Assembly: GCA_038131485.1 (NCBI GenBank)
Contig: JAYPPO010000001.1
Coordinates: 150,053 to 214,052 of the forward strand
Origin: Alphaproteobacteria bacterium
Lineage (GTDB): Bacteria > Pseudomonadota > Alphaproteobacteria > MPNO01 > UBA830
Direction of reading: 5' to 3'
Length of the DNA: 64,000 nucleotides
Shown here piece after piece: positions 22,221 to 61,193 of the stretch. The stretch's first letter is position 1, and each line of letters begins with the position of its first letter. The notes beneath the pieces were generated by a model. It was not told the origin of the DNA. It searched no databases and worked only from the letters and a program-made list of their open reading frames with translations. Made by a program: the position numbers and the translations under genes.

Positions 22221-22230
22221 CGCGGCTCTC

Positions 22231-27153: not shown

Positions 27154-28161
27154 ATGACGATCGACATGCACACCCATTTCGTGCCGGAAGCGATGGCGGG
27201 TGAGCTACGCAAGCGGAGCGCGCCGCCGTGGATTAAGGCGCTGCAGGACGGGACGGAACGGATCCATCTGCCCATCGAAAACCTCGCTTTCGGATCCGAC
27301 TATATGGACATGGGGGAGCGCATCGCCTTCATGGATGAACGGGGCATCGAACGCCAGCTTCTGTCATTCCCCGGCCTGTTCGGGCTCGACAGTCTGCCGG
27401 CGGATGAGTCGCTCCCGCTGCTGTCGCTATTCAATGACGAGGCGGCAGCGTTGTCGAAGGCGCATCCCGACCGGTTTTCTGGCCTCGCCGCGCTGCCGTT
27501 CGCCGATATGCCGAAAGCGGTGTCTGAACTGCAAAGGTGTTGCGGGCCAGAAGGCGGCCTCGGCCTCGCTGGCGCGATTTTGCCCAACAACGCTTTCATT
27601 TCGATCGCCGAGGCAGAAAAGCTGCGGCCGGTGTTCGAAGCCGGCAACGAGATCGGGCTTCATTTCTTCGTCCATCCCGGCCGCCGCCCCGACGAGGTGC
27701 CGTCGCTGGGAGCCACCCCGACGTCGCCGTTCCCGGACACTGTTTTCGCGCGCCAGGCGCTCGGTGTTCAGGCCAGTGTTGCGCAGGCGACCGCGACCCT
27801 GCTCTTCTCTGATTTCCTGAACGACTACTCCAACGTCACGGTTCACATCGCCAATCTCGGCGGCTCGTTGCCGATGGTGATCGAGCGGATGGAGCATGTC
27901 GCTGAGACGCGCGGTATCGGCGGCGACCGGCCCATGAAGCGCGCCCGCGACTCGCGTCTCCACGTCGATTGCTCGTCGCTCGGCCCGCACGCGCTCGAAA
28001 TTGCGGTGGCAGTCTTTGGCGCTGGCAAGATCGTCGTGGGCACAGATTGCCCAATCTTCTCAACCGACTGGACGCTCGCCGCGATCCGGGACGCCGCCAT
28101 TTCGAGCGCGGACCGGCAGGCGATCCTGCGCGAGAACGCCGCCCACCTGCTGAAAGCCTGA
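27154..28161 (+). CDS. Amidohydrolase-2 family protein (ACMSD/LigW-like decarboxylase or hydratase)
   Basis: Start at ATG 27154 (MTIDMHTHFVPE, the HxH metal motif) behind GGGGGAGA. A C-terminal VGTDCP motif is present. Confidence 0.85.
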   Translation: MTIDMHTHFVPEAMAGELRKRSAPPWIKALQDGTERIHLPIENLAFGSDYMDMGERIAFMDERGIERQLLSFPGLFGLDSLPADESLPLLSLFNDEAAALSKAHPDRFSGLAALPFADMPKAVSELQRCCGPEGGLGLAGAILPNNAFISIAEAEKLRPVFEAGNEIGLHFFVHPGRRPDEVPSLGATPTSPFPDTVFARQALGVQASVAQATATLLFSDFLNDYSNVTVHIANLGGSLPMVIERMEHVAETRGIGGDRPMKRARDSRLHVDCSSLGPHALEIAVAVFGAGKIVVGTDCPIFSTDWTLAAIRDAAISSADRQAILRENAAHLLKA

Positions 28162-28162
28162 C

Positions 28163-28495
28163 ATGAGCCTCTACTACGTCCAGAAGCTGCTGTACCAGCT
28201 CAACCGAGATCCCGGCATCCGCGAACGTTTCGGCGACAACGAAGACTCGGTTCTGGCCGACTACGAGTTGACCAGAGATGAGCTCGCGGCCATCCGCAAG
28301 CCGGATATCGGCCTCCTCTACGTCCTTGGCGTAAACGGCCAGCTGTTAATGCATTTCGCGGCGATGAAGGGTTATGCGTGGGACGAATACTTAAATGCGA
28401 TGCGCGACGGGCGCGCCGTGCATGGTCCGGTGCGCGCAGGCGTTTACGCGCTGGTTCAAGACACGGAAACGGATACAGACGGGGGGGACGCCTGA
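28163..28495 (+). CDS. LigA-like small subunit of a class III extradiol dioxygenase
   Basis: 110 aa; YYVQKLLYQLNRDPGIRERF... resembles the protocatechuate 4,5-dioxygenase alpha-subunit family. It starts 1 nt after the amidohydrolase stop. Confidence 0.75.
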   Translation: MSLYYVQKLLYQLNRDPGIRERFGDNEDSVLADYELTRDELAAIRKPDIGLLYVLGVNGQLLMHFAAMKGYAWDEYLNAMRDGRAVHGPVRAGVYALVQDTETDTDGGDA

Positions 28496-29316
28496 TGACG
28501 ATGGTCTTTGCCGGCGCCTGCAGCCATGCACCAGGCATCACGGGGCGTGCCGACCGGGCCGACCCAGAGAAGCGCGCGGCGCTCTACGCCCAATTTGCGC
28601 GGATGAAAGACGCTATCGATGGATCCGATGCCGAGGCGCTAGTGGTGATCGCGGCAGAGCATTTCGCCAACTTCTTCATGAACAACATGCCCGCCTTCTG
28701 CGTCGGCATGGGTGACAGTTATTTTGGTCCGATCGAGGATCCCGCCTGGCTCGGCATCGAGCCGCGAACGATCCCCGGAGCGCCCGACCTGTCGAAGCGG
28801 CTGATCGAACGTATGATGGAAGACGTCGACGTCGCGTATGCCGAGGAATGGAAATTCGACCACGGCATCATGGTGCCGCTCCATTTCCTAAGCCCTGACA
28901 ACGGACTGCCTATCATCCCGGTGAACATCAACTGCCAGGGCCCACCGCTCGCGCCAATGAAACGGGTTTACGAGTTCGGCCGCGCGCTCCGCAAGGCCTG
29001 CGATTCCGTGCCGGAAAAGATCGCCGTGATCGGCACCGGCGGCATCTCGCACTGGCCGGCGACGCCCGACTCGGGCCGTATCAACGAGGAATGGGACCGC
29101 GAATTCCTCGACCGGTTCGTCAATAACCGGCGCGACGAGCTGATTTCCTATACCGACGAGGACACCTACCGGCAGGGCGGGCAGGGCGGTTTCGAGATCC
29201 GCACCTTCGTCGCCGTCGCCGGTGCGACCGAGGGCGCGACCGGCGAGCTGTGGCACTACGACCCGATCCCGATCTTCGCGGTCGGCTGCACCGTCGCCGT
29301 GATGGACGTGGAATGA
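28495..29316 (+). CDS. LigB-like catalytic subunit of a class III extradiol dioxygenase
   Basis: ATG 28495 overlaps the LigA-like stop (TGATG). Motifs CSHAPG, EHFANFF, FDHG and GTGGISHWP are typical of the LigB family. Confidence 0.85.
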   Translation: MTMVFAGACSHAPGITGRADRADPEKRAALYAQFARMKDAIDGSDAEALVVIAAEHFANFFMNNMPAFCVGMGDSYFGPIEDPAWLGIEPRTIPGAPDLSKRLIERMMEDVDVAYAEEWKFDHGIMVPLHFLSPDNGLPIIPVNINCQGPPLAPMKRVYEFGRALRKACDSVPEKIAVIGTGGISHWPATPDSGRINEEWDREFLDRFVNNRRDELISYTDEDTYRQGGQGGFEIRTFVAVAGATEGATGELWHYDPIPIFAVGCTVAVMDVE

Positions 29317-29329
29317 CGGAGCGGGCGCG

Positions 29330-30334
29330 ATGACTGCGCGCGCCAAGCCGCCGTTCCGCGCCGATCACGTCGGCAGCCTGCTTCGGCCGGCGCGCCTCGC
29401 CGAAGCGCGCGCCAGAGGCAAGGCCGGCGAGATATCGGCCGACGCGGTCCGCGCCGTCGAGGACGATTGCGTCGCGGACGCCGTCGCGCTGCAGGAGGGG
29501 CTCGGGCTCCACGGCGTCACGGACGGCGAGTTCCGGCGCGACTGGTGGCATCTCGATTTCCTGTGGGGGTTCGCCGGCGTCGAGCCATGGGAGGCGCTGC
29601 GCGCGCAGAGCTTCTCCAACGACGAGCAGCCGCCGATGGCCAAGATCGTCGGCAAGGTCGGCCATCCGCACGGCATCTTCACCGACATGTTCGGTTATCT
29701 CGCGAAGACGACGCGCGAGACCGCGAAGCAGACGATCCCCGGCCCCGCGATGATCCATCTCCGCCCCGGGCGCGAAGCGGTCGAGCAGAGCGCGTATCCC
29801 GACATGGACGCGTTCTGGGCCGACTGGACGGCGGCCTCGATGACGACGCCGGCTGCCGCGCAGGTCGACTGGCCTATCGTGCGATGAGGCGATGCGCGCC
29901 TCGATGCGCGACCGCGGCGACGATGCGGCGCTATACCGACCGCCCCGCCGACATGACGGTGACCGTCCATACCTGCCGCGGCAATTTCAAGTCGAGCTGG
30001 GTCGCGCAGGGCGGTTACGAGCCGGTCGCCGAGACCGTGTTCGGCGGGCTCGATGTCGACGGCATCTTCATGGAGTTCGACAGCGACCGCGCCGGCGGCT
30101 TCGAGCCGCTGCGCTACGTTCCCGACGGCCAGACGGTCGTGCTCGGCCTGATCACCACCAAGACGCCCGCGTTGGAGGATGCCGACGCCGTCCGGCGCCG
30201 CATCGACGAGGCGTCGGCGTATGTGCCGCTGTGCCTCAGCCCGCAATGCGGCTTTTCCTCGACGCACCACGGGCACCGAGGACGACCAGCAATGGCGCTG
30301 GTCGTCGATCGCGGAGCTAAAACGCGCCCTATAG
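29330..30334 (+). pseudogene. Cobalamin-independent methionine synthase II (MetE C-terminal-like) family gene, inactivated by multiple frameshifts and a net internal deletion
   Basis: Family-conserved segments are spread over all three frames:
- KPPFRADHVGSLLRP...FWADWTAA in frame 0
- DAGCR in frame 2
- QVD in frame 0
- CDEAMRASMRDRGDDAA in frame 1
- TDRPADMTVTVHTCRGNF...SPQCGFSST in frame 2
- TEDDQQW...* in frame 0
An intact paralog lies at 62363..63517. Confidence 0.8.
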
Positions 30335-31628
30335 GATGCTGCATCGGCGGTTCTCGCCGATAGAGTTCGGACACCTCCCGCGCGAAGGCCCGGAGCGCGG
30401 CGGGATCGTCGGCGTCGCCGCCGATCTCGCTTGCCGGCACCACCAGATCGTTCGCGAAGCTCGGCGGGATCTCGCCTCCCGGCGGGGAAAAGCCTTTTGG
30501 GTCTTCGCCGCGGGCGACTGCCTCGATGCCCTCGCGCACGATGCGCCGGAACAGGACGATGCCCTGGTCCTGCGAGCCTAGATGCTCCAGCGCATGGACG
30601 TTAATTGGTCCCTGGCCGACCTGCGCGTCATGGTCGCCCGGGATCCATTGGCGGTCGAGATAGGGGCGCAGGCCCTTCTGGCCAAACACCTCGAGGCGCC
30701 GCCGCTCATCGAACGGCATCGTTTCGTCGCTGAAAACGTGGCTGACATAAAAGGTGATGCAGCGGTCGTCGTCGACCGGCAGCGTCCAGAATGTCATGAA
30801 TGGGCGGCTTGCTGGCTTCGGCTCGCGGCCGTTTTCGAAGATCGAGCTGATCGCGTGAATGTTGCTGCCGTATACCTCGGCCGAGCGGACCCACACAGTG
30901 TCGTCGACGCGCCTAGCGGCGAGATAGATCACGCCCGCGGGAGTTTCGGTCCAGACAATCTGCGGGATGTGCTCGAACTCATCGGCGAAGTGCGCCATGC
31001 CGCGGAGCTGCGGAATGACGTGCAGCGTGTGTGTGTGGAGCGGGTCGATCGCGTTTTCTTTTACCTGCAGCCAGTTGCAAGCGAAATCGAAGCGCTCACC
31101 CGGCACCAGTTGCGCGCCCGGGACGGAAAACCGGTCGAGCGCCGGAAACGCCGGGATGCGGTCGGGCGGGCCCATGTAGGCGAACACGATTCCGGCGAAT
31201 TCGTGTGTGGGGTAGGCGCCCTGGCTGACCTCGTCCTTCAGGGTTTTGGCCGCGGGATCGCCTGGGATGTCGACGATCGTGCCGTCGACGTCGAAGACGC
31301 GGCCGTGATAGCAGCAGCGGATACCCGCTTCGGTCAGGATGCCGTATTCCAGCGATGTGTTGCGGTGGCAGCAATGGAGGTGCATGACGCCGATACGGCC
31401 TGAGAGATCGCGGAAAGCGACGAGATCTTCACCCAGCGCGCGAACGCGCAGCGGCACGTCGCCCAGTTCGGAAAGGTAACAGACTGGTTGCCAGAAGCGC
31501 CGGTGATATTCGCCCGCCCGCGTGCCGCGCCCGACTTCCAGCAAGGCCAGATCGGGTTCCGCCTCGATGCGGCGCTCGTATCCCCGGAATGCCAGCCCGT
31601 TGGGCGGCGGCCGTGCCGTGTTGTCCAT
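30114..31628 (-). CDS. Rieske [2Fe-2S] non-heme-iron oxygenase, catalytic (alpha) subunit
   Basis: Start at ATG 31628 behind GGAGGAA. Rieske motif CCH-x17-CCYH. Mononuclear-iron region NWLQVKENAIDPLHTHTLH. The last ~75 codons are Arg/Ser-rich and antisense to the MetE-like pseudogene, so the annotated 3' end is doubtful. Confidence 0.75.
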   Translation of the reverse strand: MDNTARPPPNGLAFRGYERRIEAEPDLALLEVGRGTRAGEYHRRFWQPVCYLSELGDVPLRVRALGEDLVAFRDLSGRIGVMHLHCCHRNTSLEYGILTEAGIRCCYHGRVFDVDGTIVDIPGDPAAKTLKDEVSQGAYPTHEFAGIVFAYMGPPDRIPAFPALDRFSVPGAQLVPGERFDFACNWLQVKENAIDPLHTHTLHVIPQLRGMAHFADEFEHIPQIVWTETPAGVIYLAARRVDDTVWVRSAEVYGSNIHAISSIFENGREPKPASRPFMTFWTLPVDDDRCITFYVSHVFSDETMPFDERRRLEVFGQKGLRPYLDRQWIPGDHDAQVGQGPINVHALEHLGSQDQGIVLFRRIVREGIEAVARGEDPKGFSPPGGEIPPSFANDLVVPASEIGGDADDPAALRAFAREVSELYRREPPMQHPIGRVLAPRSTTSAIAGRPRCPWCVEEKPHCGLRHSGTYADASSMRRRTASASSNAGVLVVIRPSTTVWPSGT

Positions 31629-32684: not shown

Positions 32685-33623
32685 TTACCGCGGCCCCGGT
32701 ACCTCCAGACCGACGCCACGCAGGTGCCCGAAAAGTGCGGCGAGCTTCGCGCGGTCGGCATCGGGGAGCGGCGGGCTGAGGATCGACGCGACGTTTGAGC
32801 GCAGGTGATCGGGGTTCCCGGTGCCGAACAGTACCACGTCTGCGCCGGGCTCGTGGCGCGCATAGCGGTATGCGGCGTCGATGAGACTGGTCGCGCCGCG
32901 GTCGTGGATCAGGAAACCGAGCGGATTGTCCGTTGCCAGCTCGGCCGGCACTTTTCCGTCCGCCGCGAGCTCCCGCATCGTCTCCTCGAGGCGTCCCGGC
33001 ACACTGAAGACATTGCGGACGGTGAACATCATCAGGGTGCCAATGCCGTTCGCCATTGTGTGCGGGAAGACGCGGTCGCGCGCGACCTGATGCATCAAGT
33101 TGAAGCCCAGCATGATCACGTCCCAGCAGCCATTGTGGACGGCGCGACCCAGCATCTCATGCTCGTGGTCGTTGGGGGACGTCTCGGTGATGCCGAGAAA
33201 GCGTAGCTTGCCCCGCTCCTTCTCGCGCAGCAGCGCCGGGGCGAGTTCGTTCAGCGCATGGTCGTACTGGCGCGGCGAGACGCCGTGCAGCATGAAGATG
33301 TCGACGCAATCGGTGCCGAGCTCGCGCAGTGACTTCTCAAGCGCCGCGACGGTGCTCTCCGGGGATCCGCCAGCGAGGTGCTTGGTCGAAATCACGACCT
33401 GGTCGCGCGGCACGTCTGCGATCGCCCTGCCGAGCACACCCTCGGTGCCGTAGCTCCGCGCCGTGTCGAAGAAATTGATGCCAAGGTCCATCGCCTCGCG
33501 CAGGATCGCGACCGCGCCTCGGTCGCCCGCGCCGGTGCCAAGCCCCGCCTTGCTGTTGCCACCGCAGCCGAAGCCTGCGACGCTGACCTTGAGGCCGGTG
33601 CGGCCGAGGGTGGTGTAGTCCAT
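32685..33623 (-). CDS. Aldo/keto reductase
   Basis: 312 aa with AKR blocks (FFDTARSYG, ISTK, LGITETS). Confidence 0.85.
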   Translation of the reverse strand: MDYTTLGRTGLKVSVAGFGCGGNSKAGLGTGAGDRGAVAILREAMDLGINFFDTARSYGTEGVLGRAIADVPRDQVVISTKHLAGGSPESTVAALEKSLRELGTDCVDIFMLHGVSPRQYDHALNELAPALLREKERGKLRFLGITETSPNDHEHEMLGRAVHNGCWDVIMLGFNLMHQVARDRVFPHTMANGIGTLMMFTVRNVFSVPGRLEETMRELAADGKVPAELATDNPLGFLIHDRGATSLIDAAYRYARHEPGADVVLFGTGNPDHLRSNVASILSPPLPDADRAKLAALFGHLRGVGLEVPGPR

Positions 33624-33636
33624 CCGCTTTCTCTTC

Positions 33637-34374
33637 TTATCCGATCCTCTTGCCGCCGCGGTCGTAGTCCTTCGACTGGATCGAATCCTCAGCGGCGAAC
33701 GACTCTAGATAGGCTTCGCTCCGAAGTTTAGACGCATCGTAGCGCTCGTAGTGGACAATGCTGTCGAGCGCGCGGCGGCTCTTGGGTGTGGCGATCACCT
33801 CGGTATAGCCGACCGGCACGATTTGATAGACCCTCAGCTCCTTCGGGATACCCAGCATGTGCTTGAGCATCAGACTGAAATAGGGTGATGCGGCGTCGCT
33901 GACATATTGCGTCGACAGGCCGAAGGATTCGGCCATAAGCATCAGCTGCAGCGTCGCGTTGGCGAGACCACTGTAGAAATGCGAGTCCGCCTTGTCCTCC
34001 GCCGTCCGCAGCGGAAAGCACAGCGACGTGCGCGGATCGCCGAGAACGAGGATCAGGACCGGCGCGTTGCGCCAGCCGACGCCGCTGACGCTTGTCGTCC
34101 CGCGTATTGTGCGTTCCAGTTCGATCTTTTCGGTCAGCTGCTGCTTGTAGAGGTCGGCGATGCGCACCCGCGTGTCCTTGTTGCGGATAACAAGGAATTC
34201 CCATGGCTGCGCGTTGCCGCCCGATGGTGCCGCCCGGGCGGCTTCCAGCAGCAGCTCCAGCATTTTTTCTGGCACCTCGGTGTTCTCGAGAAAGCCGGTG
34301 CGCGACGAGCGCCGCCGGCGCATCATCTCCAACAGTTCCAACGGCTCGATTCCTGTCGTGCCGCTCGTGGCCAT
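33637..34374 (-). CDS. Nitroreductase-family flavoprotein
   Basis: Start at ATG 34374, 2 nt after the FAH stop. RRSSRTGF...AARAAPSGGNAQPWEFLVI is the nitroreductase FMN-binding signature. Confidence 0.8.
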   Translation of the reverse strand: MATSGTTGIEPLELLEMMRRRRSSRTGFLENTEVPEKMLELLLEAARAAPSGGNAQPWEFLVIRNKDTRVRIADLYKQQLTEKIELERTIRGTTSVSGVGWRNAPVLILVLGDPRTSLCFPLRTAEDKADSHFYSGLANATLQLMLMAESFGLSTQYVSDAASPYFSLMLKHMLGIPKELRVYQIVPVGYTEVIATPKSRRALDSIVHYERYDASKLRSEAYLESFAAEDSIQSKDYDRGGKRIG

Positions 34375-34376
34375 TC

Positions 34377-35237
34377 TTAGACCTCCTCGTCGACCACCTC
34401 GTTCGAGAGCAGCCCTATCCCCGGCACCTCGACCTCGACCACGTCGCCTGGGACTAGCCATTTTGGCGGGTCGAAGCGCGCGCCCGCGCCGGTTGGCGTG
34501 CCGGTCGAGATGATGTCGCCGCGGCGCAGCGTCATAAAGGTCGACACGTAGGAGATGAGATAAGTGAAATCGAAAATGATGTTTTCGGTCGTGTCGTCCT
34601 GGCGCACCTCGCCGTTGACCCGGGTTGTCACGCGCATGGGTGCGGTCATGTCGAACTCGTCGGCGGTCACCATCCACGGGCCGATGGATGCTGTCCGGTC
34701 GAAATTCTTTCCTTGCGTGACGTTGAATTTCGAATGGCGCAGCCAGTCGCGGATGGTGCCTTCTTGCAGGATTGTAAGCGCGGCGATGTGATCGAGCGCC
34801 TTTTCCTTCGGGATACGTCTGCCTTCCTCGCCGATGACAATGGCTATCTCACCCTCATAGTCGAGCTGATTGGACTCGGGCGGGCGCACGATTTTCGCGC
34901 CATGGCCGACGAAGGATTCCGGCGTTCGGAAAAACATGCTGGGATAGTCGGGGAGATTGGAGTTGTCCTTATACTCTTCGTTGCGGTTGGCGTAGTTGAC
35001 GCCGATGCAAAGGATCTTGCCTGGCCGGTCTACCGGGACCAGGAGGGTCGCGTCGGCCAGCGCGCAATTTGTCGAAGCGCTCGCGACGATCTTCTCCGCT
35101 TCCGCCAGCTTTTCCGGGATCAGCAGATCTTCTGGCGCGAGCACGGAATCGATCCTTCCGGCCAGATCAACGATTCCCTCGTTCTTCACGGCGCCGAACG
35201 ACTTGTGGCCGGCTGTCTCATATGAGACGATCTTCAT
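34377..35237 (-). CDS. Fumarylacetoacetate hydrolase (FAH) family protein
   Basis: 286 aa; motifs YEGEIAIVIGE and GDIISTGTPTGAG. Confidence 0.85.
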   Translation of the reverse strand: MKIVSYETAGHKSFGAVKNEGIVDLAGRIDSVLAPEDLLIPEKLAEAEKIVASASTNCALADATLLVPVDRPGKILCIGVNYANRNEEYKDNSNLPDYPSMFFRTPESFVGHGAKIVRPPESNQLDYEGEIAIVIGEEGRRIPKEKALDHIAALTILQEGTIRDWLRHSKFNVTQGKNFDRTASIGPWMVTADEFDMTAPMRVTTRVNGEVRQDDTTENIIFDFTYLISYVSTFMTLRRGDIISTGTPTGAGARFDPPKWLVPGDVVEVEVPGIGLLSNEVVDEEV

Positions 35238-35257
35238 ATTGTTGACTCCCCAACAAT
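35238..35257. promoter_or_regulatory. Inverted repeat ATTGTTG-N6-CAACAAT in the FAH / dehalogenase-like divergent promoter region
   Basis: 7-bp perfect arms immediately adjacent to the FAH start codon, in a 105-bp divergent intergenic region. Confidence 0.35.
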
Positions 35258-35342
35258 TATCGCGACGGAACGGTCGCGCTTGTCCGGGGACACATTATCA
35301 TGCTGGTTCGCGTGCGCCAGCGCCCGGCGAGAGGGGTTGGGG

Positions 35343-37538
35343 ATGCTCTTTTATCCGAAGTCGAAGGACAGGCCGTATCATCTCGGTTCCTATCCGCTCG
35401 AAGTACTTCCGCGCGACGACGGTGTGCTGGAAGTCGAGGCCGCCCGCCCGCGCGCGCGCGCCAAGGTGGCCGCGGTCGCGTCGGGTCCGCTCGGCGACGC
35501 GGCGGTGAAATACAGCGGCCTATTCGAACGCTTCATCGAGGAAGCTCCCGTCGAGAAACAAGCACCAGTCCCCGCCGACCTCGACCGCCGTGTGCAGGAC
35601 GTAAAAGGCTGCGCCTATTTCATGGATGCGAGCCAGGTCGGCATTTGCTGTATCCCGAACAACGCCTGGCTCGAGGGCGCGACGCCGGTCGCGGATCAAA
35701 CCCACGCCGTCGTCATGCTGTTCGAGCATCCGCGCCTGCCCGACGTCGGCAATCTTGCGCGCGACTTGGTCGACGGCGCCGTCGACGCATCCTGCGAAAT
35801 GCGCGCACTCGAGATCGCGGCCTGCGTCGCGGGGCACTTGCGACAGATGGGCTTCGAAACCCGCATCCACATGCCGGGCAAGAGCCTGCTCGACCTCGAT
35901 CGGATGACGGTGCTGGCCGGGCTCTGCGTTCGCGAGGGCGATACTCTCGCCAACCCGTTCATCGAGGGCAGCTACACGATCGCCGCCATCTCGACCAACT
36001 ACGAGCTCGCCTGCGACCGGCCACTGGCTGCCTCTGCGGCGAACGCGCGCGACAGGGCCTACTGGAAAGGCATCAACGGCGCGACGTCCGGCCGCGAACG
36101 CGTGCGCCGGGCCAAGCGCAAATCGCATGACAGCCGGTATCCCATGGAAACCGTCAAGCGCGTCGACCGTCCGACGACGCTGATCCTCGACGACGAGGTG
36201 CCCCGCGTGCCCAAACGCGCTGCGTTCTTCGAACGTGCGTTGCAGGGCGATCTAGGCGACAAGGCGCGTCGCGAGCGCACGCGCTTTTCGTTCAAGCACC
36301 CGCTGTCGATGAGCCTGTTGAAGGTGATCCGCTCGATGGTGCCACATCAGAGTGGCGAGATCGCAGACGGGGTGAACTCAGAGGAGTATGGTGATCCAGA
36401 GGAAAACGCGAAGGCGATCAAGGCACTGTCCTATTTCCTCGGCTCTGATCTGACCGGCATATGCGAGATCCCGCGTTATGCCTGGAATTCGCACAAGGAG
36501 GACGGCCAGCCGATCGAGATGTATCACCGCTACGCCGTCGTGATGCTGATAGACCAGGGCTACGAAACAATGGAGGGTGCGTCCGGCGACGACTGGATTT
36601 CTGGCGTGCAGTCGATGCGCGGCTATCTGCGCGGCGCCGAGATCGCCGGCGTGATGGGCGAGACGATGCGCTCGCTCGGTTTCCCGTCGCGTTCGCAGAC
36701 CAATGCGGATTCCGACGTCCTCCACATCCCGCTGGTTCTGTGGGCCGGGCTCGGCGAGCTGAGCCGTATCGGTGAGCTAGTCCTCAACCCGTTCGTTGGT
36801 CCGCGCTTCAAGTCGGTGGTGCTGACGACCGACATGCCGCTTGCCGTCGATAAGCCGATCGACTTCGGCCTTCAGTATTTCTGCGACCATTGCCACAAGT
36901 GTGACCGCGAATGCCCGTGCGACGCGATCCCGCACGGCCCCAAGGTCATGTTCAACGGCTACGAAATCTGGAAGCCCGACGTTGAGCGCTGCACGCGCTA
37001 CCGACTGACCAACTCCAAGGGTTCTGCCTGCGGGCGCTGCATGAAGACTTGCCCCCTCAACAAGGTGGTCGATCTCGACGGCGCGCTGATGACGCGGATG
37101 GCGAGTTGGCTCGGGGTCAACGCGCGTTTCCTGAAGCCCGCCTTGGTGCCGCTCGCAACCTGGATCGACGACAAGCTGGGCAACGGCATGCGCAATCCGG
37201 TTAAGAAATGGTGGTTCGACCATGAGATCGTCGAAGACGGCGTGATCGAAGCAAAGGCGACCAACCAACGCGACATTGAGCCGAAGAAAGAGGTCGATAT
37301 CGAAGGCCAGAAGGTCGCCTACTACCACGCCAGCATGATGCCGCCGCCGGATCAGCCGGATACCTTCCCGGTCGATCGCAAGGCGGCGATGGCGGCGAAG
37401 GACCTGCTCGAGACGCCGGCAGAGGCGAGGACGCGGAAGGCGAAGGGAGGTCCGACGCCGGATCATTACAAGCCGACGGCGGCGCTTGGCATTGGTGCGG
37501 CCAAAGACCGTACGGCAAGCCCCTACGCGGACGACTGA
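35343..37538 (+). CDS. Soluble (non-respiratory, 'catabolic-type') reductive dehalogenase homolog with two [4Fe-4S] motifs
   Basis: - Start at ATG 35343 behind GAGAGGGG.
- Cluster motifs CDHCHKCDRECP (CxxCxxCxxxCP) and C-x12-CGRCMKTCP.
- RdhA-type core (AIKALSYFLGSDLTGICEIPRYAW...YAVVMLIDQ) preceded by a degenerate copy of the same module (VKGCAYFMDASQVGICCIPNNAW...HAVVMLFEH).
- No twin-arginine signal and no rdhB-like anchor gene nearby. Confidence 0.7.
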   Translation: MLFYPKSKDRPYHLGSYPLEVLPRDDGVLEVEAARPRARAKVAAVASGPLGDAAVKYSGLFERFIEEAPVEKQAPVPADLDRRVQDVKGCAYFMDASQVGICCIPNNAWLEGATPVADQTHAVVMLFEHPRLPDVGNLARDLVDGAVDASCEMRALEIAACVAGHLRQMGFETRIHMPGKSLLDLDRMTVLAGLCVREGDTLANPFIEGSYTIAAISTNYELACDRPLAASAANARDRAYWKGINGATSGRERVRRAKRKSHDSRYPMETVKRVDRPTTLILDDEVPRVPKRAAFFERALQGDLGDKARRERTRFSFKHPLSMSLLKVIRSMVPHQSGEIADGVNSEEYGDPEENAKAIKALSYFLGSDLTGICEIPRYAWNSHKEDGQPIEMYHRYAVVMLIDQGYETMEGASGDDWISGVQSMRGYLRGAEIAGVMGETMRSLGFPSRSQTNADSDVLHIPLVLWAGLGELSRIGELVLNPFVGPRFKSVVLTTDMPLAVDKPIDFGLQYFCDHCHKCDRECPCDAIPHGPKVMFNGYEIWKPDVERCTRYRLTNSKGSACGRCMKTCPLNKVVDLDGALMTRMASWLGVNARFLKPALVPLATWIDDKLGNGMRNPVKKWWFDHEIVEDGVIEAKATNQRDIEPKKEVDIEGQKVAYYHASMMPPPDQPDTFPVDRKAAMAAKDLLETPAEARTRKAKGGPTPDHYKPTAALGIGAAKDRTASPYADD

Positions 37539-37638: not shown

Positions 37639-38610
37639 ATGAAAATCTGCATCTACGGCGCAGGCGCCATCGGCGGCTTGATCGGCGGCTATCTCGCGCG
37701 CGAGGGCCAAGACGTCTCGCTGATCGCCCGAGGCCCGCATCTCGACGCCTTTAAGGCCGGCGGGCTGACGGTGGAGACGCCCGACGGTGGGCGGTTTACT
37801 GCAACCTGCGAGGCCTCCGACGATCCCGGCGACCTCGGGACGCAGGACGTCGTCTTCGTCGCGGTGAAGAACCCCGCCCTGCCATCCGTCGCCGCCGGCA
37901 TCGCCCCTCTGCTCGGCCCGGGCACCGTCTTCGTAACCGCCATGAACGGCCTGCCGTGGTGGTTCTTCAACGGGTTTCCGTCGGACGGCCCGATGATCGA
38001 TATTTCGGCGCTTGATCCCCAAGGCGCGATCAGCCGCGCGATACCGAAGGAACGCGTCGTCGGCTGCGTCATCCATATGGGGGCGGAGGTGCCTGCGCCG
38101 GGAAATGCGCGGCACATAGGCGGCGGGCTGCTGATCTTCGGCGAGGCGACCGGAGAGGTTTCGGACCGCGTGCGCGCGATTGCCGGGATCTTCGCGCCCA
38201 CGCCGCTCGAGACGAAGACCGTCGACGATCTTCGCCTCGAAATCTGGCTCAAGCTTCTCGGCAATTTCAACTTTGGGCCGATCTCGGCGCTGACCGGCGC
38301 AACCAACAGCGCCATCGGGGCGGATCCTGCGCTACGCAACCTCGCCAACAACCTGTTTGAGGAGGCGGCCGAGGCCGGACGCTGCGTCGGACTGGTGCCC
38401 GACATGACCGCCGACGAGCGAACCGCTCTTGGCGCGCAGCTTGGCAACTTCAAGACCTCGATGCTGCAGGATTTCGAAAACGGTAAGACGCCCGAGATCG
38501 ACGCCATTGTTGCCGCGCCAGTCGCCCTCGGCCATGCGGTCGGAGTGCCGATGCCGGTCTCGGAAGCGGTGCTGGCGCTGGTGCGCGCGAAGGCCGCCGC
38601 GATTTCCTGA
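37639..38610 (+). CDS. 2-dehydropantoate 2-reductase (PanE/ApbA) family oxidoreductase
   Basis: MKICIYGAGAIGGLIGGYLA Rossmann N-terminus; KTSMLQD motif. Confidence 0.85.
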   Translation: MKICIYGAGAIGGLIGGYLAREGQDVSLIARGPHLDAFKAGGLTVETPDGGRFTATCEASDDPGDLGTQDVVFVAVKNPALPSVAAGIAPLLGPGTVFVTAMNGLPWWFFNGFPSDGPMIDISALDPQGAISRAIPKERVVGCVIHMGAEVPAPGNARHIGGGLLIFGEATGEVSDRVRAIAGIFAPTPLETKTVDDLRLEIWLKLLGNFNFGPISALTGATNSAIGADPALRNLANNLFEEAAEAGRCVGLVPDMTADERTALGAQLGNFKTSMLQDFENGKTPEIDAIVAAPVALGHAVGVPMPVSEAVLALVRAKAAAIS

Positions 38611-39670: not shown

Positions 39671-40711
39671 CTACTTGTCCAACGTATTCTCCGCGAAAAT
39701 CTCTTCTAACTTCAACTTTCGGGGCGTGAGACCCTGTTCGAATGAATACTGCGCGATGGTTTCCAGGGTCTTGCGGTTGGCGATCACCCCATGGCGCACC
39801 AGCGGCGTTGCCAGCGCCTGCTTGGACTCGGGCGGCAGCAAGCCAGCGTCGAGATAGTAGGCCGTCTGCGCCATGCGCTGCTGGTCGACCATCGCGTTGG
39901 CGTCCTCGAACGCCTTGAAGATGTTGAGGATCGCCCATGGGTGCCTTTCGGCGACCTCGCGCTTAATGACCATGCCGTGATTGATGGGATAAAGGCCGGT
40001 CTTCGAATAGAACCGCTTGCCCTCTGCATAGGCATCGGGGAACAAAGGCCGGATGTCCGGGTGATTATCGAGGTCTGCGGTCGAACGGTCGACGAGGTTA
40101 CCGCCCGGCAGGTAGAGCAGCGTCGCGTCTAGTTCCTTGTCGAGCATCATCTGGCCGATATTTTTCTCGATCGGGATCTGGTTGACGGTGACGCCGGGCG
40201 GTGGTGCGAAGCCGGTGGAGCCGCCGTGGCTGATGTCCGGCGTGCGCTCCATGAAAAATTCCATGTCCTTCGGCTCGACGCCGAACTCGTGCTGCAGGAT
40301 GCCGCGCGACCACAGCGCCGCCGTTTGCTGGAATTCCGGCACGCCGACCCGTTTGCCCTTCAGATCCTCCGGCTTTTCGATGCCGGCGTCCTTGCGGACG
40401 AGCGCCCAGGTCTGGAAGAAGAACCGCGTGGTGAAAATCGGCAGGCCGATGAAGCGGTCGTCGCCGCGCGCGACCGCCATAAGCAGCGACGAGACCGACA
40501 TTTCCGAGACGTCGAACTCCGCGAATTTGAGCTGGCGCCAGAATAGCTCAGAGGGATGCAATTCCGATGTCACCATGTCGATCGCATCGGCGGTGATGAA
40601 GCCGTCGAGGATTGGCCTGGTGCGCAGGTTCGGCGTTAGCCCGACGCTAAGCTGCACGCGCGTGTTCGCCCCGCTGCCAGCGTGGTTCTTCTGCGGTCCG
40701 AGGTCTACCAT
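39671..40711 (-). CDS. 4,5-dihydroxyphthalate decarboxylase-like protein (periplasmic-binding-protein fold, no signal peptide), paralog 1
   Basis: NLRTRPILDG...ELFWRQLKFAEFDVSEMSVSSLL pattern of the PhtD/Pht5-type family as I recall it. By eye roughly two thirds identical to the adjacent paralog. Confidence 0.65.
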   Translation of the reverse strand: MVDLGPQKNHAGSGANTRVQLSVGLTPNLRTRPILDGFITADAIDMVTSELHPSELFWRQLKFAEFDVSEMSVSSLLMAVARGDDRFIGLPIFTTRFFFQTWALVRKDAGIEKPEDLKGKRVGVPEFQQTAALWSRGILQHEFGVEPKDMEFFMERTPDISHGGSTGFAPPPGVTVNQIPIEKNIGQMMLDKELDATLLYLPGGNLVDRSTADLDNHPDIRPLFPDAYAEGKRFYSKTGLYPINHGMVIKREVAERHPWAILNIFKAFEDANAMVDQQRMAQTAYYLDAGLLPPESKQALATPLVRHGVIANRKTLETIAQYSFEQGLTPRKLKLEEIFAENTLDK

Positions 40712-40738
40712 TTCGTCATTCCTGTCTTTTCCTTTGGG

Positions 40739-41734
40739 TTACGTATTCATCATCGGGGGCGCGAAGAGCTCCTCGAGCGCGACGCGCTTCGGCGTTAGCC
40801 CCTGTTCGAAGGAATAGTCTGCGATCGTCTCGAGCACGTTGCGATTGGTAGCGATGCCGTAGCGCACGAGAGGTGTCTCCAGCGCCGTCTTCGCCGCAGC
40901 CGGCAGCAGGCCGGCCGCGATATGGTTTTCGCAAAGCGCCATCCGATGGCGGTTAACGAGATCGTTCGCCGCCGTGAACGCTTCAAGGATCTTTTCCGGC
41001 AGCCACGGGTGCCTCTCCAGCGTGTCACGGCGGATCGCCATGCCATGGTTGATCGGGAACACCCCGGTCGCCTCAAAGTACCGCTTGCCCTCGGCGAGCG
41101 GGTCGAACAACAGGCGGATATCGCAGCGCTTACTGAGGTCCGCCGTCGACCGGTCGACTAGGTTGCCGCTGCGGATGTAGCGGAGCGTCGCGTCGAGCTC
41201 GCCCGAAATCAGCATCGAGCCGATGTTCTTCTCCGGTGGGATGCGGTTGACCGTGACGCCCGGTGGCGGCTCGAACCCGGTGGAGCCGCCGTGGCTCACC
41301 TCCGGGGTGCGCTCCATGAAGAATTCCATGTCCTTTGGCTCAACGCCGAATTCGTGCTGCAGCGCTCCTCGCGCCCACAGCGCGGCCGTCTGCTGATATT
41401 CGGGCACGCCGACCTTCTTGCCTCTGAGGTCGGCGGCTTCGTTTATACCGCGGTCTGTGCGGACCAGGATTGCTGTGTGATAGAACGCTCGCGTCGTAAA
41501 GACCGGTATGCCGACGAACCGGTCGTCGCCGCGCGCGACCGCCATCAGGAGCGACGACATCGACATCTCCGAGACGTCGAACTCGGCAAATTTGAGCTGC
41601 CGCCAGAACATTTCCGAAGGGTGCATTTCGGTGACCGTCGCTGCGACGCCGTCGACCGTGACGTACCCGTCGATGAAGGGTTGCGTGCGCGGGTTGGGCG
41701 ACAGGCCAAAGGAAAGCGACAGTAGTTCCGTCAT
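40739..41734 (-). CDS. 4,5-dihydroxyphthalate decarboxylase-like protein, paralog 2
   Basis: Start at ATG 41734 in an ATGA overlap with the upstream aldolase-like gene (MTELLSLSFGLSPNPRTQPFIDG...). Same family blocks as 39671..40711. Confidence 0.65.
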   Translation of the reverse strand: MTELLSLSFGLSPNPRTQPFIDGYVTVDGVAATVTEMHPSEMFWRQLKFAEFDVSEMSMSSLLMAVARGDDRFVGIPVFTTRAFYHTAILVRTDRGINEAADLRGKKVGVPEYQQTAALWARGALQHEFGVEPKDMEFFMERTPEVSHGGSTGFEPPPGVTVNRIPPEKNIGSMLISGELDATLRYIRSGNLVDRSTADLSKRCDIRLLFDPLAEGKRYFEATGVFPINHGMAIRRDTLERHPWLPEKILEAFTAANDLVNRHRMALCENHIAAGLLPAAAKTALETPLVRYGIATNRNVLETIADYSFEQGLTPKRVALEELFAPPMMNT

Positions 41735-42447
41735 GAAGACGGTGGCATCGCGCGGCGGCACCACGCTTCCCAAGTGCGTTCGAGGCCGAGCGGGCCGAGC
41801 TGGGTCTTCGTGCTCGCTTCGATTTCCTTCGCCGTCAGGTAATCGGGGGTGCCGATTTGCATAGCCTGCATCTGCAGCTTCGCATTGACCTGCAGATAGA
41901 CCGCTCTCATCACCGCTTCCTGCAGCGTCGCTCCGACGACGACGCAGCCGTGGCGCTTCATCAGAGCGATGGACTGGCCGCCGAGCGCGGCGCCGAGGTC
42001 GCGTCCCTGGTCCATGGTAACGACCAGGTGATCGCCTTCGCCGAACTTGTCACGAATGTCCCACGTCGGAATATCTTCGCCGATCACGCCGCAGGTATGC
42101 ATTACCGGGCGGATGGGCACGCCGGTCGACGCGAACGGGATAACCTCGTAGGAATGGTTGTGGATCACGGCACCCACGTCCCCGCGGAGCTCGTATATCG
42201 CGCCGTGGATCATGCGCTCGCCGTAGGGGCGCCTGCCGTTTAGGTCGATGCCGTCGCCGTCGAGGCGGAACTCCACAATGTCCTCCGCCTCGATCATTTC
42301 CGGCGCCCGCGCCCACGACAGAAGGTAGCGCTCGCGGTCCGTCGGATGGCGCACGCTCACATGGCCGAAGGAGTCGACGACGCCTTCATGCGCAAGAATG
42401 CGGTTCGCGATCACGAGATCAAGTAGGGTCTCAGGGCTGGCAGACAT
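41731..42447 (-). CDS. Class II aldolase/adducin family protein
   Basis: Start preferred at ATG 42447 (GGAG at -10). Motifs HVSVRHP, VIHNHS and RHGCVVVG. Confidence 0.8.
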   Translation of the reverse strand: MSASPETLLDLVIANRILAHEGVVDSFGHVSVRHPTDRERYLLSWARAPEMIEAEDIVEFRLDGDGIDLNGRRPYGERMIHGAIYELRGDVGAVIHNHSYEVIPFASTGVPIRPVMHTCGVIGEDIPTWDIRDKFGEGDHLVVTMDQGRDLGAALGGQSIALMKRHGCVVVGATLQEAVMRAVYLQVNAKLQMQAMQIGTPDYLTAKEIEASTKTQLGPLGLERTWEAWCRRAMPPSS

Positions 42448-42478
42448 TCGGTGCTCCGGCGGGCGTTTCGGCCTGTCT

Positions 42479-43087
42479 TCAGGCGTCAACGCGTTCCTCG
42501 CGGGAGGGCACGCGCTTGTGCAGGTCCCCGTAGAACTCTTCGACCGGCATGAAGCCCGGCGCCTCTCGGCACATCTTTTCGGTGATGTCCATCAGCTCGC
42601 CCTCGTCCATGTTGAAGTCCATGGGCTTCAGGAAAGGCTGGGTGACGTACCAGGGGCTGTCTGCGAAGAATTCGATGCCGTTGCCCTCGGGATCTGTTGC
42701 GTACATCGTCCAACAGATCCCGTGCGTGCCTGTCATGATCTTGGTGTCAGGGCGTTCACGCTGGATACGGAGATACATGGCGCGCAGGTCGGAGAGGGAC
42801 TCGAGCCGGAAGGCCATGTGATGGATAACGCCGCCGGCGCCCTTGGCGATGGTGTTGCCGGGGACGTCGTCCGGACGGCCGTCCACGAGAAAAATCTGAT
42901 GGTGTTCTTCCGGGTCAAGCGTCATGAAGATCATGGTGACGCCGGCGCCGGTCAGCCCGCCGTCCGTGCGTTCGAAACCGATGACGCGGGTGTAGAAGTC
43001 TTCCATCATTTCGATGTCCTTCACGACCAGCCCCATGTGGCTGAATCGCGCTGTGATCTTCTTGTCCGTCGTTGCGTCGACAGGCAT
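42479..43087 (-). CDS. VOC family protein (extradiol dioxygenase/glyoxalase fold)
   Basis: Start at ATG 43087 behind GGGAGGAA. FSHMGLVVKDIEMMEDFYTRVIGF is the VOC module. Confidence 0.8.
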   Translation of the reverse strand: MPVDATTDKKITARFSHMGLVVKDIEMMEDFYTRVIGFERTDGGLTGAGVTMIFMTLDPEEHHQIFLVDGRPDDVPGNTIAKGAGGVIHHMAFRLESLSDLRAMYLRIQRERPDTKIMTGTHGICWTMYATDPEGNGIEFFADSPWYVTQPFLKPMDFNMDEGELMDITEKMCREAPGFMPVEEFYGDLHKRVPSREERVDA

Positions 43088-43202
43088 GCCATTCCTCCCG
43101 AGAAATTTGTGGAACATATTCTGTGTCAGGGAAGGGCGAGAATCAATTCACGCCATACGAGAGTGCCCGGGCCGGGGGCGGCCAATAAGGTCCATAAAGA
43201 TA

Positions 43203-43253: not shown

Positions 43254-43724
43254 TTATTTGCGCGATTCGTAGAAATTCACGAGTTTCACGACGTCTTCGG
43301 CCTGAATACGGCCGAGCGGTCCATCGGCGTAGCTCGACGCGACGACCTTGTTGTCTTCGCCCAGGATGAATTCGGATGGCTGGATGATCTGGCGGCGGTC
43401 TTCCCACCAAGAGCCCAACGCGTCTGCGATGTCGCGGGTAACTTCGAAGCCGACCGGGAAATTGACCTCGTTGGTTACTTCCTTCGCCTTGTCTTCCGGA
43501 TCGATGCTCGCCGCGACGACCGAAATCCCGAGCTTGTCTAGCTCAGCCTTCTGTTCTGCGAAGCCGACCAACTGCCGGCGGCAGTAGGGTCACCAATGAC
43601 CCCGATAGAAGAGGATGACCTTGTATTTAGAATTCAGGTCACCCGGAAGGTCCAGCGTGCCCCCGCCGACGGTCTTGATCGTCAAGCTGGGAAACGCGGC
43701 GCCAATCCCAAGTTTATCGGACAT
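43254..43724 (-). CDS. AhpC/TSA-type thiol-disulfide oxidoreductase (Prx-like redoxin) selenoprotein; in-frame TGA (43592..43590) read as Sec, motif W-U-P-Y-C
   Basis: ATG 43724 behind a perfect AAGGAGAA RBS. 44 sense codons (…KVILFYRGHW), then TGA, then PYCRRQLVGFAEQ... continue in the same frame into track ORF 43254..43571. The TGA replaces the first Cys of the redoxin WCPYC motif. Confidence 0.75.
43566..43591 (-). promoter_or_regulatory. Candidate SECIS hairpin of the redoxin selenoprotein
   Basis: mRNA GACC-CU-ACUGCC-GCC-GGCAGU-U-GGUC: 4-bp and 6-bp stems beginning at the GA of the UGA. The apical loop is small and slightly closer to the UGA than in textbook bacterial SECIS. Confidence 0.45.
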
Positions 43725-43837: not shown

Positions 43838-44965
43838 TTACTCTGCGGTGTTGGAGGCCGCGTCCTCCTCTAACGCCATCTTTTGCGAGGCGAACGCGTC
43901 GATGCCGATTTCGGCGCGAAGAACGGCGGTGACCGCCGCCTTGTCCTCTTCGAGCGGCTGGCCGGTCGAATCGGCGACGCGGTCGATGGCGTTGAACAGG
44001 GCAGCGACGGCGGCCGAATCGACTAGCGCGTCCCCGCCCATCGCATCGACGATCGCCTGACGCGCGCGGATCAGCCTGTCGACGTCGGGGTCGAGCACCG
44101 CCTCTGCGAACTCGATCAGTAGCGCGCCTTGTTCGACGCCCGTGTCGCCCGCGCCTGACCCTTCAGTGATGGCGTGGAAGTTGAGGGTCTCACCAGCATG
44201 TTCGCTGCCCGCACGGAGCAGTACCGAATGGCTGGTCGTTCAATAGGTACACTGGTTGAGGGCGGAGATCCGGGCCGCGATCAGTTCGATCTGCAGGTGG
44301 CTGATCGCGCGGAATTCCTTCGTGAAGTCGCGCATCTGCGAGCCCGCTAGATACTGCGCGGCGACGACGTCGAAGAAGCTGCGCGCCTCGTCCGGCACTA
44401 GCGTAAGCGCGCGCCGAATGTTGGCCTCTGGACCGACGAAATAGTCTGCCTCGTTAGGTCCGAACTCGTCCCACGCGATATTTGGCGCCCACGCCTGATG
44501 CTGGCGCGCCTCCGTTGGCCGGTAGTGCGAAGGCTCGCCCCCTTGCGCGTCGGGCAGGGCGCGCGGTGGGATGCCCATGCCGTGCGCGAAGGTGTCGATC
44601 GCGATCGTGTGCGCAACGACGCTGACGATCTCGACGAAATGGGTCTCCGGGATCGCCGCGATGGTGCAGTCGTACCAGCTTCTGGTTAGGCGGCCCGGGT
44701 CGGCGACAATAAGGTGGATCATGTCGACCCAGTCACGTGGAAGATCGGTTCCGGCATCGTGCGAGTGTGTCACCAGGAAGGGCGAGAGCGCGTCGCGGAC
44801 TGCGACGCAGGTCGTGCAGCCCCGGGCATGGCGCGTTTCCGCCATTACCTCCACGCGCTGCTCGCCGGTCAGCCAGGCGCCCGGTTTCGACAGCCGGTCC
44901 CAGGCGCGAGCATGCGACTCGCTCAGCTCGTCGCGGATCTTATAGGGGGAGTCGGTGTAGTCCAT
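43838..44965 (-). CDS. Two-repeat AhpD/CMD-fold (alkylhydroperoxidase-like) selenoprotein; in-frame TGA (44242..44240) read as Sec, motif C-T-Y-U-T-T-S-H
   Basis: Track ORFs 44240..45037 and 43838..44098 share one frame and are separated only by the TGA plus 47 sense codons. Start taken at ATG 44965 (MDYTDSPYK) because 45037 would overlap tRNA-Sec. The N-terminal repeat carries an ordinary CTTC pair. Confidence 0.75.
44193..44235 (-). promoter_or_regulatory. Candidate SECIS hairpin of the AhpD-like selenoprotein
   Basis: Starts 7 nt after the UGA. Stems CCAGC/GCUGG, UUCG/CGAA and CUGCU/GGCAG, with a 3-nt bulge, a small internal loop and a 7-nt apical loop CCGUGCG. Confidence 0.6.
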
Positions 44966-45104: not shown

Positions 45105-45200
45105 GACCGACCGCAAAAACTAGCAGACAGTGCGAGTGGGCGGCAATGACGGCCGATAAGGGTGTCGGACTCCGGCCGCGCCTGCTAATTTTCGCCAGTC

Positions 45201-61159: not shown

Positions 61160-61193
61160 CGGAAGTTTCCTCTTCGTTTTGGTGTCGGGCTGG

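Follow-up and report, generated by a model that had tools for sequence, protein, structure and literature searches.

Within a window of 64,000 nucleotides (64 kb) from an alphaproteobacterial genome (GenBank assembly GCA_038131485.1, contig JAYPPO010000001.1, positions 150,053 to 214,052), the forward-strand gene at 35343..37538, here called rdhA, most probably encodes a cytoplasmic, monomeric and oxygen-tolerant catabolic reductive dehalogenase of the NpRdhA ('truncated', reductase-less) subfamily, situated in an aromatic-acid cluster; we put the probability of this reading at about 0.85. The case is made by family membership, architecture, residue conservation and synteny, all of which are observed. 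The identification is the recognition of an already published architecture, not a discovery, and nothing in it is surprising to a specialist. The oxygen-tolerant catabolic reductive dehalogenases thereby gain one well-supported member whose gene context is conserved; enzymes of this group are of interest for the halogen cycle in sea and soil and for bioremediation, under aerobic conditions, of phenolics that carry bromine or chlorine.

Family placement and architecture

The gene and its parts, with positions counted from the first letter of the window, are as follows.

35343..37538, forward: rdhA, predicted NpRdhA-type ('truncated') catabolic reductive dehalogenase, 731 aa (phmmer, TIGR02486, AlphaFold, Foldseek)
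35529..36029, forward: N-terminal vestigial copy of the cobalamin-binding core, aa 63-229 (hhalign against aa 334-507)
36342..36863, forward: putatively functional cobalamin-binding core, aa 334-507, carrying S424, Y428 and K490 (aa 414-516 are 64% identical to NpRdhA)
36882..36917, forward: first [4Fe-4S] motif CDHCHKCDRECP, aa 514-525, with Cys residues invariant in 57 homologues
36990..37055, forward: second [4Fe-4S] motif C-x12-CGRCMKTCP, aa 550-571, which includes R554; the Cys residues and R554 are invariant

At the level of the whole protein, the closest solved relative is NpRdhA (PDB: 4RAS), the crystallised, oxygen-tolerant enzyme of Nitratireductor pacificus pht-3B. Residues 6-701 align with it in phmmer at E = 1.6e-194, and the alignment to the 704-residue 4RAS chain stops at residue 695. 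Counted from the HMMER match line, identity is about 47% overall and rises to 64% over aa 414-516 in the core. An earlier note on this DNA, made from its letters alone, had proposed a soluble reductive dehalogenase and had named a profile search and a structure comparison as suitable checks. Both agree with the proposal. The NCBIfam reductive dehalogenase model TIGR02486 spans aa 395-600 and scores 163.0 bits against a cut-off of 160.35. An AlphaFold2 model, computed with a 57-sequence alignment as input (pTM 0.86), retrieves all NpRdhA chains (4RAS, 6ZXU, 6ZXX) at the first ranks in Foldseek, with TM-scores of 0.85-0.90 and E-values of about 1e-68; PceA and the membrane RDH complex come second (TM-score 0.3-0.5). 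The best structural match is therefore the soluble NpRdhA, and neither epoxyqueuosine reductase (QueG) nor an unrelated Fe-S protein.

These comparisons also bear on the idea that the protein is itself a QueG or a respiratory, membrane-associated RdhA, to which we assign a probability close to nil. All of these proteins fall into the class III cobalamin enzyme superfamily, and the QueG model TIGR00276 does give a weak match; but that match amounts to 24.4 bits against a cut-off of 200, and QueG structures reach TM-scores of only 0.2-0.4 (E about 1e-5) in Foldseek. Respiratory PceA, for its part, aligns with the C-terminal part of the protein only (aa 462-624, E = 1.9e-23), and a twin-arginine translocation (TAT) leader and an rdhB gene are both missing.

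The last point follows from the N-terminus, MLFYPKSKDRPYHLG, and from the surroundings of the gene. Met1 aligns with a Met that is nearly invariant across the 57 homologues, hence translation starts at the ATG at 35343 and not at the upstream TTG at 35280. A regular-expression search found no RR motif within the first 80 residues, and inspection found no Arg-Arg pair within the first 60. The highest Kyte-Doolittle hydrophobicity over 19 residues is 1.18, which leaves the protein without a transmembrane segment. Because the whole 64-kb window contains no open reading frame (ORF) in the range of 60-160 aa that would encode at least two transmembrane-like segments, it has no rdhB-like gene either. 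The assignment to the soluble, catabolic type, without TAT leader or membrane-anchor gene, is thereby borne out, and the two RdhA-type Fe-S motifs noticed earlier in the 731-aa product were recovered at aa 514-525 and aa 550-571. The sole Pfam match in the protein is a sub-threshold one to Fer4_7 over aa 514-572; by Pfam it contains no FAD, NAD or 2Fe-2S domain, and no fused reductase domain of the phthalate-dioxygenase-reductase (PDOR) type.

The N-terminal region is a second, degenerate copy of the core. With the 57-sequence family profile, hhalign aligns aa 63-229 to aa 334-507 over 167 columns at 25% identity (probability 99.7%, E = 1.3e-25). The internal duplication, first suspected from two similar peptides that we locate at aa 87 and aa 359, is thus significant. 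The N-terminal copy has Glu where the core has its catalytic Tyr, and Thr where the core has the Lys. A vestigial duplicated cobalamin domain has been described for the catabolic RdhA family (PMC10463259).

In its overall plan the window protein resembles NpRdhA closely. Both are of the same length class, both show the order vestigial core copy, cobalamin core, region with two [4Fe-4S] clusters and C-terminal tail, and both are devoid of a TAT leader, an RdhB and a fused reductase. NpRdhA belongs to the 'truncated' clade of catabolic RdhAs, which is defined by the absence of the fused PDOR domain (PMC10463259). The self-sufficient RdhAs BhbA (Comamonas sp. 7D-2) and JtRdhA (Jhaorihella thermophila) possess the same vestigial N-terminal domain, and they too are cytoplasmic and oxygen-tolerant enzymes whose dehalogenated phenolic products enter aerobic ring cleavage (PMC10463259); unlike them, the window protein, with its 731 aa, stops after the Fe-S domain and the tail. 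Respiratory RdhAs, such as PceA of Sulfurospirillum multivorans (4UQU) and the membrane RDH complex (8Q4H), share the cobalamin core and the module of two [4Fe-4S] clusters with the window protein, but they are TAT-exported, RdhB-anchored and dimeric, and lack the vestigial domain. The Roseobacter debrominase Ros_A3X954 was considered as a nearer characterised relative and rejected: its architecture is short, its Fe-S motifs fall within residues 283-345, and it lacks the vestigial domain.

Catalytic residues and proposed reaction

Residue conservation was read from a sample of 57 homologues, which are 64-93% identical and show a mean column identity of 70%. In NpRdhA, Y426 acts as the proton donor; K488, R552 and S422 form hydrogen bonds with the substrate hydroxyl; F290, F310, P311, A419 and M423 line a hydrophobic wall; and K307 provides a salt bridge to the carboxylate at the entrance (PMC7565698). 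The first four residues correspond to Y428, K490, R554 and S424 of the window protein and are all identical, as are the equivalents of F290, F310 and M423 (F295, F315 and M425). The substitutions with respect to NpRdhA are G421 (for A419), R312 (for K307) and S316 (for P311). All of these positions are invariant in the 57 homologues, with the exception of position 316, which is either Ser or Ala. Judged by these residues, the catalytic apparatus and the recognition of ortho-halophenols are retained in the clade of the window protein.

The bound cofactors of the enzyme, its activity, the class of its substrate and its electron donor are inferred from homologues. Cobalamin would be bound in the base-off form, as the 64% identity of the core and the fold match suggest. 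Electrons would pass from a separately encoded donor of the ferredoxin or flavodoxin type via the two [4Fe-4S] clusters to the cobalamin in the core. An ortho-halogenated phenol would be held at its hydroxyl by S424, K490 and R554, with the halogen placed on the cobalt; the carbon-halogen bond would be cut reductively, and Y428 would protonate the carbon. The N-terminal domain, as a dead copy of the core, would take the place of the dimer partner of the respiratory enzymes. In metabolic terms, the enzyme is likely to act on a halogenated hydroxy-aromatic acid, from which it would strip Br or Cl prior to hydroxylation; the dehalogenated and hydroxylated ring could then be cleaved by a LigAB-type dioxygenase and passed on to enzymes of the FAH and CHMI (5-carboxymethyl-2-hydroxymuconate isomerase) types. 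That dehalogenation coupled to aromatic catabolism works in principle follows from JtRdhA, which enables Escherichia coli W to grow on 3-bromo-4-hydroxyphenylacetate (PMC10463259).

Distribution of the clade and points of doubt

Homologs of the window protein are widespread. A word-indexed search yielded 2823 proteins at E <= 1e-20, and the best 120 clusters are at least 64% identical, nearly all of them along the entire protein. Relatives are present in the genomes of at least 581 species in a one-genome-per-species collection. From these stretches, 80 loci were kept, all of them in metagenome-assembled genomes (MAGs). Alpha-, beta- and gammaproteobacterial labels prevail among these, and relatives farther away, at 46-50% identity, carry the labels Acidimicrobiia, Rokubacteria and Entotheonella. 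With the vestigial N-terminal domain as query, at least 448 clusters were found at the 50% identity level, 74 of them with E <= 1e-30; proteins of about 1040-1090 aa among these matches probably represent the self-sufficient type. The homologs bear source names as diverse as 'reductive dehalogenase', 'Fe-S protein', 'ferredoxin' and 'hypothetical'. Given these inconsistent names and a Pfam Dehalogenase model that misses RdhA, the clade is routinely mis-annotated.

Several observations weigh against the identification as a dehalogenase of the NpRdhA subfamily. The match to TIGR02486 exceeds its cut-off by less than 3 bits and concerns aa 395-600 only, the Pfam Dehalogenase model gives no match to the protein, and the nearest characterised enzyme is just about 47% identical. 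The three pocket positions G421, R312 and S/A316 are fixed in the clade and unlike those of NpRdhA, so that the substrate may differ from that of NpRdhA. Within the 64 kb there is no cob or btu gene, no ferredoxin, no ferredoxin reductase and no PDOR-type reductase, and an Rfam scan of the same 64 kb detected no B12 riboswitch (its sole match was a tRNA-Sec). Across 83 loci, rdhA is not regularly accompanied by a gene for a redox partner, and no halogen-specific gene, for example a halide exporter, was seen near rdhA.

Some of these points could be read in another way: fold and cofactors would be the same, and the physiological reaction would be the reduction of a non-halogenated phenolic or aromatic-acid pathway intermediate. 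We hold this to be unlikely. The breadth of the clade (at least 581 species' genomes) and its uniformity (70% mean column identity among the 57 sequences, which are labelled as coming from alpha-, beta- and gammaproteobacterial MAGs) would fit such a role, as would variable rdhA neighbourhoods with nothing halogen-specific, the three deviating pocket positions and the distance to the nearest assayed enzyme, about 47% identical. On the other hand, the proton-donor Tyr is invariant together with the Lys, Arg and Ser, a triad which in NpRdhA places the ortho-halophenol on the cobalt (PMC7565698), and all characterised catabolic RdhAs act on ortho-halophenols (PMC10463259). We therefore retain dehalogenation as the preferred reaction.

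As for the source of electrons, a motif screen near rdhA detected a 4Fe-4S motif at 3 and a plant-type 2Fe-2S motif at 6 of the 83 loci; in the window, it revealed no ferredoxin-type motifs besides those of Rieske oxygenases. The PanE-like protein encoded directly downstream of rdhA is a member of a family of NAD(P)H-dependent 2-oxoacid reductases without flavin or Fe-S, and is thus unlikely to feed the RdhA clusters. Most probably, the electrons come from a ferredoxin or flavodoxin system whose genes lie outside the window, in another part of the genome. The neighbourhood of NpRdhA, by contrast, includes a ferredoxin reductase and two ferredoxins (PMC10463259), in place of which the window has a LigAB/FAH/PanE cluster. 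The missing linkage to a redox partner in the 83 loci sharpens the question of how reductase-less RdhAs are reduced in vivo.

Gene neighbourhood

The following features surround rdhA.

27154..29316, forward: Amidohydro_2 (ACMSD / gamma-resorcylate-decarboxylase-like), LigA and LigB (gallate / protocatechuate 4,5-dioxygenase-like), by Pfam; ring-cleavage module
32685..33623, reverse: aldo-keto reductase, final gene of the operon FAH - nitroreductase - aldo-keto reductase (Pfam Aldo_ket_red, E = 2.7e-34)
33637..34374, reverse: nitroreductase-superfamily FMN protein, 245 aa (Pfam Nitroreductase, E = 1.2e-28)
34377..35237, reverse: FAH-family gene (HpaG / OPET-decarboxylase-like), conserved divergent neighbour (Pfam FAA_hydrolase, E = 2.6e-68)
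35238..35342, no strand: divergent spacer between FAH and rdhA, 105 bp, with a 7-bp and a 6-bp inverted repeat
37639..38610, forward: PanE/ApbA-like NAD(P)H 2-oxoacid reductase, directly downstream of rdhA (NF005089, 360.7 bits, cut-off 223)
39671..43117, reverse: two PBP-fold proteins, a class II aldolase-fold (PhtC-like) protein and a VOC/glyoxalase protein, by Pfam and NCBIfam; conserved downstream block

Neighbouring genes were compared by tblastn in the 80 loci kept from the at least 581 stretches with an RdhA relative, supplemented by one annotated contig of a Paracoccaceae MAG (L081), whose RdhA is 78% identical. Among the closer relatives, the context is clearly shared. FAH is syntenic in L001, L002, L003, L052 and L081/L082; panE in L001, L002, L003 and L052, while L081 has it with a 4-bp overlap with the rdhA stop codon; the Amidohydro_2-LigA-LigB module in L002, L003, L052 and L081; and the block of PBP-fold, class II aldolase-fold and VOC genes in L003, L052 and L081/L082. 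The core order in L002, L003, L052 and L081/L082 is Amidohydro_2-LigA-LigB on the forward strand, FAH on the reverse, CHMI-rdhA-panE on the forward and the PBP/aldolase-fold/VOC block on the reverse strand. In addition to this core, the window carries a lineage-specific insertion composed of a LigXa-like Rieske oxygenase, a YghU-type glutathione S-transferase, the aldo-keto reductase and the nitroreductase; the last three recur only in L001 (91% identity), a short contig that ends at the transferase gene. Loci whose RdhA is less than about 75% identical have no neighbour in common with the window. Clustering of all ORFs within 6 kb in the 80 loci revealed no universal partner of rdhA; the commonest neighbours are a short-chain dehydrogenase/reductase (14 of 80 loci) and Amidohydro_2 (11 of 80).

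The individual genes point to hydroxylated aromatic acids. The closest solved relatives of the FAH-family protein are 8SKY, the OPET decarboxylase 6IYM and HpaG (1GTT). The LigB-like protein matches DesB (1.6e-27) and LigB (1.1e-23), i.e. gallate and protocatechuate 4,5-dioxygenases, and Amidohydro_2 is related to ACMSD (8e-18) as well as to gamma-resorcylate and 5-carboxyvanillate decarboxylases. The CHMI protein of the related loci matches 5-carboxymethyl-2-hydroxymuconate isomerase below the cut-off. Elsewhere, the window encodes a UbiD decarboxylase, two further FAH paralogues, an MhpA-like FAD hydroxylase, a VanA-like O-demethylase and the homogentisate pathway. Enzymes that depend on O2 lie near rdhA, namely Rieske oxygenases, an extradiol dioxygenase and the FAD hydroxylase. 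We read the window as an island of aerobic metabolism devoted to hydroxylated aromatic acids, in which the dehalogenase is part of a meta-cleavage module; the recurrence of CHMI-rdhA-panE beside LigAB and FAH is what permits a concrete guess at the substrate class.

A more far-reaching proposal, which we regard as possible but rather doubtful, is that the clade is an orthologous group apart from NpRdhA, dedicated to one natural halogenated hydroxy-aromatic acid (e.g. bromo-hydroxyphenylacetate or bromo-hydroxybenzoate). It draws on the identity of at least 64% across the 120 listed clusters, on the fixed G421/R312/S316 pocket and on the sub-lineage with CHMI-rdhA-panE in a LigAB/FAH cluster. 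If it were true, RdhA would be the entry step of a widespread aerobic pathway of organobromine mineralisation, and the cluster could reveal the physiological substrate and, via co-expression, the native donor of reductase-less RdhAs.

Candidate non-oxidative aromatic-acid decarboxylases and FAH paralogues are unusually numerous in the window (3..968, 21450..24739, 27154..28161, 39671..42489 and 60095..61558). The decarboxylase candidates comprise three Amidohydro_2 genes and one UbiD/VdcC-like gene; the class II aldolase-fold protein has its best match, below the cut-off, in PhtC, a 3,4-dihydroxyphthalate decarboxylase. FAH-family genes number four in all, plus hmgA-faa at 52824..55576. The two PBP-fold proteins (39671..41773) show no obvious signal peptide on inspection; they may resemble 4,5-dihydroxyphthalate decarboxylase, but NCBIfam gave only weak SsuA-family matches.

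A MetE-like gene (cobalamin-independent methionine-synthase family) at 29330..30363 on the forward strand appears disrupted. In L002, an intact ortholog follows the Amidohydro_2-LigA-LigB module; in tblastx against it, the query shifts from frame 1 to 2 to 3 near 29840-29940 at a constant subject frame. Either a pseudogene or two sequencing errors would account for this.

The nitroreductase operon and the divergent spacer

Divergently from rdhA, the FAH gene, the nitroreductase and the aldo-keto reductase form a tight operon on the reverse strand, as the earlier note had it. After correction, the nitroreductase starts at the ATG at 34374, 2 nt past the FAH stop and preceded by the ribosome-binding site AGGAGG, and is probably translationally coupled to FAH; the aldo-keto reductase starts 13 nt past the nitroreductase stop. 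In the PDB, the nitroreductase matches first the uncharacterised nitroreductase 4DN2 (7e-20), then 4G8S, iodotyrosine deiodinases (1.9e-12, full-length) and BluB (4e-9); its best NCBIfam match is BluB (TIGR02476) with 64.4 bits, the cut-off being 150.

From this kinship arose the suggestion that two mechanistically different dehalogenases stand back to back, the nitroreductase being a second, flavin-dependent one of the iodotyrosine deiodinase type. The deiodinases are indeed its best named PDB relatives, with which it has the FMN-binding nitroreductase fold in common while being related at subgroup level only, and its probable coupling to FAH puts it in the operon divergent from rdhA. Deiodinases, however, are defined by an E1 lid that binds the halotyrosine zwitterion through the triad Glu-x3-Tyr...Lys; nearly all of them have kept this triad, without which dehalogenation is not efficient (PMC8668982). 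The pattern E-x3-Y-x(15-25)-K has no match in the nitroreductase, whose lid region is shorter (33 residues, aa 71-103) and contains no E-x3-Y and no Lys at the aligned position. Moreover, 4DN2 matches better than any deiodinase, the gene adjoins rdhA in only one of the 80 related loci (L001), and relatives whose RdhA is 78-82% identical lack it. The back-to-back arrangement of two dehalogenases is accordingly not supported, a deiodinase-type activity being quite improbable.

Alternatively, the nitroreductase could be an NAD(P)H-dependent electron donor of RdhA, or a BluB/CblC-like helper in B12 processing. Here, too, the gene's place in the divergent operon and BluB as its best NCBIfam match are consistent with such a role, and the native donor of the reductase-less clade is stated to be unknown (PMC10463259); but the score of 64 bits is far below the BluB cut-off of 150, and the gene is not conserved with rdhA. 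Nitroreductases, besides, usually transfer hydride and not usually single electrons to Fe-S clusters, which counts against a donor. Overall, this role is highly improbable. Given that an ortholog of the aldo-keto reductase (90% identity) likewise occurs in L001 only, L063 holding merely a 31%-identical member of that family, the nitroreductase and the aldo-keto reductase are a lineage-specific insertion. In L001, these two genes are separated by a gene (1775..2974, reverse) for a multi-pass membrane protein of 399 aa in which Ile, Phe, Lys and Trp abound; the window lacks it.

The shared 105-bp divergent region with its 7-bp inverted repeat had been read as a promoter region. Its length and the repeat are exact: ATTGTTG-N6-CAACAAT lies at 35238-35244 and 35251-35257, and a 6-bp repeat follows at 35261-35266 and 35273-35278. 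When the spacer is shuffled, on the other hand, 6.6% of the resulting sequences contain a 7-bp inverted repeat whose arms are at most 10 nt apart, and so do 11% of all 105-bp tiles cut from the window; at such chance-level frequency we rejected the repeat as an operator. One of its arms lies directly against the FAH start codon, and the FAH ribosome-binding site GGGAG falls in its loop. No match to a sigma-70-like promoter was found in the spacer. In L001, the repeat is kept, but there the whole spacer is about 90% identical, which makes its conservation uninformative. The arrangement itself is derived: five related lineages, with six loci in all (L002, L003, L032, L052 and L081/L082), have a 138-aa CHMI gene that separates FAH from rdhA. 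By tblastn, this gene is absent from the window and from L001, and the ancestral operon was thus CHMI-rdhA-panE.

Selenium genes

About 2 kb past the end of the VOC gene (43117) of the aromatic cluster, the window contains a complete selenocysteine-insertion set (45009..49436, reverse), next to two selenoprotein genes.

43254..43723, reverse: Prx-like (AhpC/TSA) selenoprotein, in-frame TGA at 43592..43590, redox motif W-U-P-Y-C
43838..44965, reverse: AhpD-related selenoprotein, in-frame TGA at 44242..44240, motif ALNQ-C-T-Y-U-T-TSHS
45009..45104, reverse: tRNA-Sec (ARAGORN; Rfam RF01852, 76 bits)
46102..48027, reverse: selB, selenocysteine-insertion set
48024..49436, reverse: selA, selenocysteine-insertion set

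Both selenoprotein genes are split by mechanical ORF calling, and both families have already been catalogued (PMC2398784). The AhpD-related gene reads cleanly through its TGA to 43838; its N-terminal part matches NCBIfam NF041238, 'AhpD_rel_CFYUT (seleno)protein', with 289.5 bits (cut-off 175), although the match extends over positions 1-238 only of a profile of 357. If its U is taken as C, the Prx-like protein covers the whole AhpC-TSA profile at 76 bits, as against 35 bits for the truncated ORF; L052 and L082 hold syntenic homologs of 80% identity, which ORF calling likewise breaks into two pieces. A hairpin 3' of the Prx-like UGA was rejected as a selenocysteine insertion sequence (SECIS) element, since the 66-nt fold is no better than those of shuffled sequences (z = -0.82).

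A third selenoprotein, deiodinase-like and without a homolog in the window, is encoded in the Paracoccaceae MAG (L081, 16918..~17550, reverse), 4.7 kb downstream of rdhA. Read through its in-frame TGA (...ALAFGSYT-U-PPFRNQ...EAHPSDGW), it matches Pfam T4_deiodinase with 87 bits (cut-off 27) and NCBIfam deiodinase_rel with 164 bits, under the cut-off of 250. Its motif FGSYT-U-PPF presumably resembles the selenocysteine active-site motif of vertebrate iodothyronine deiodinases. It is a candidate for a selenocysteine-dependent ortho-halophenol dehalogenase that would stand beside the B12-dependent one.

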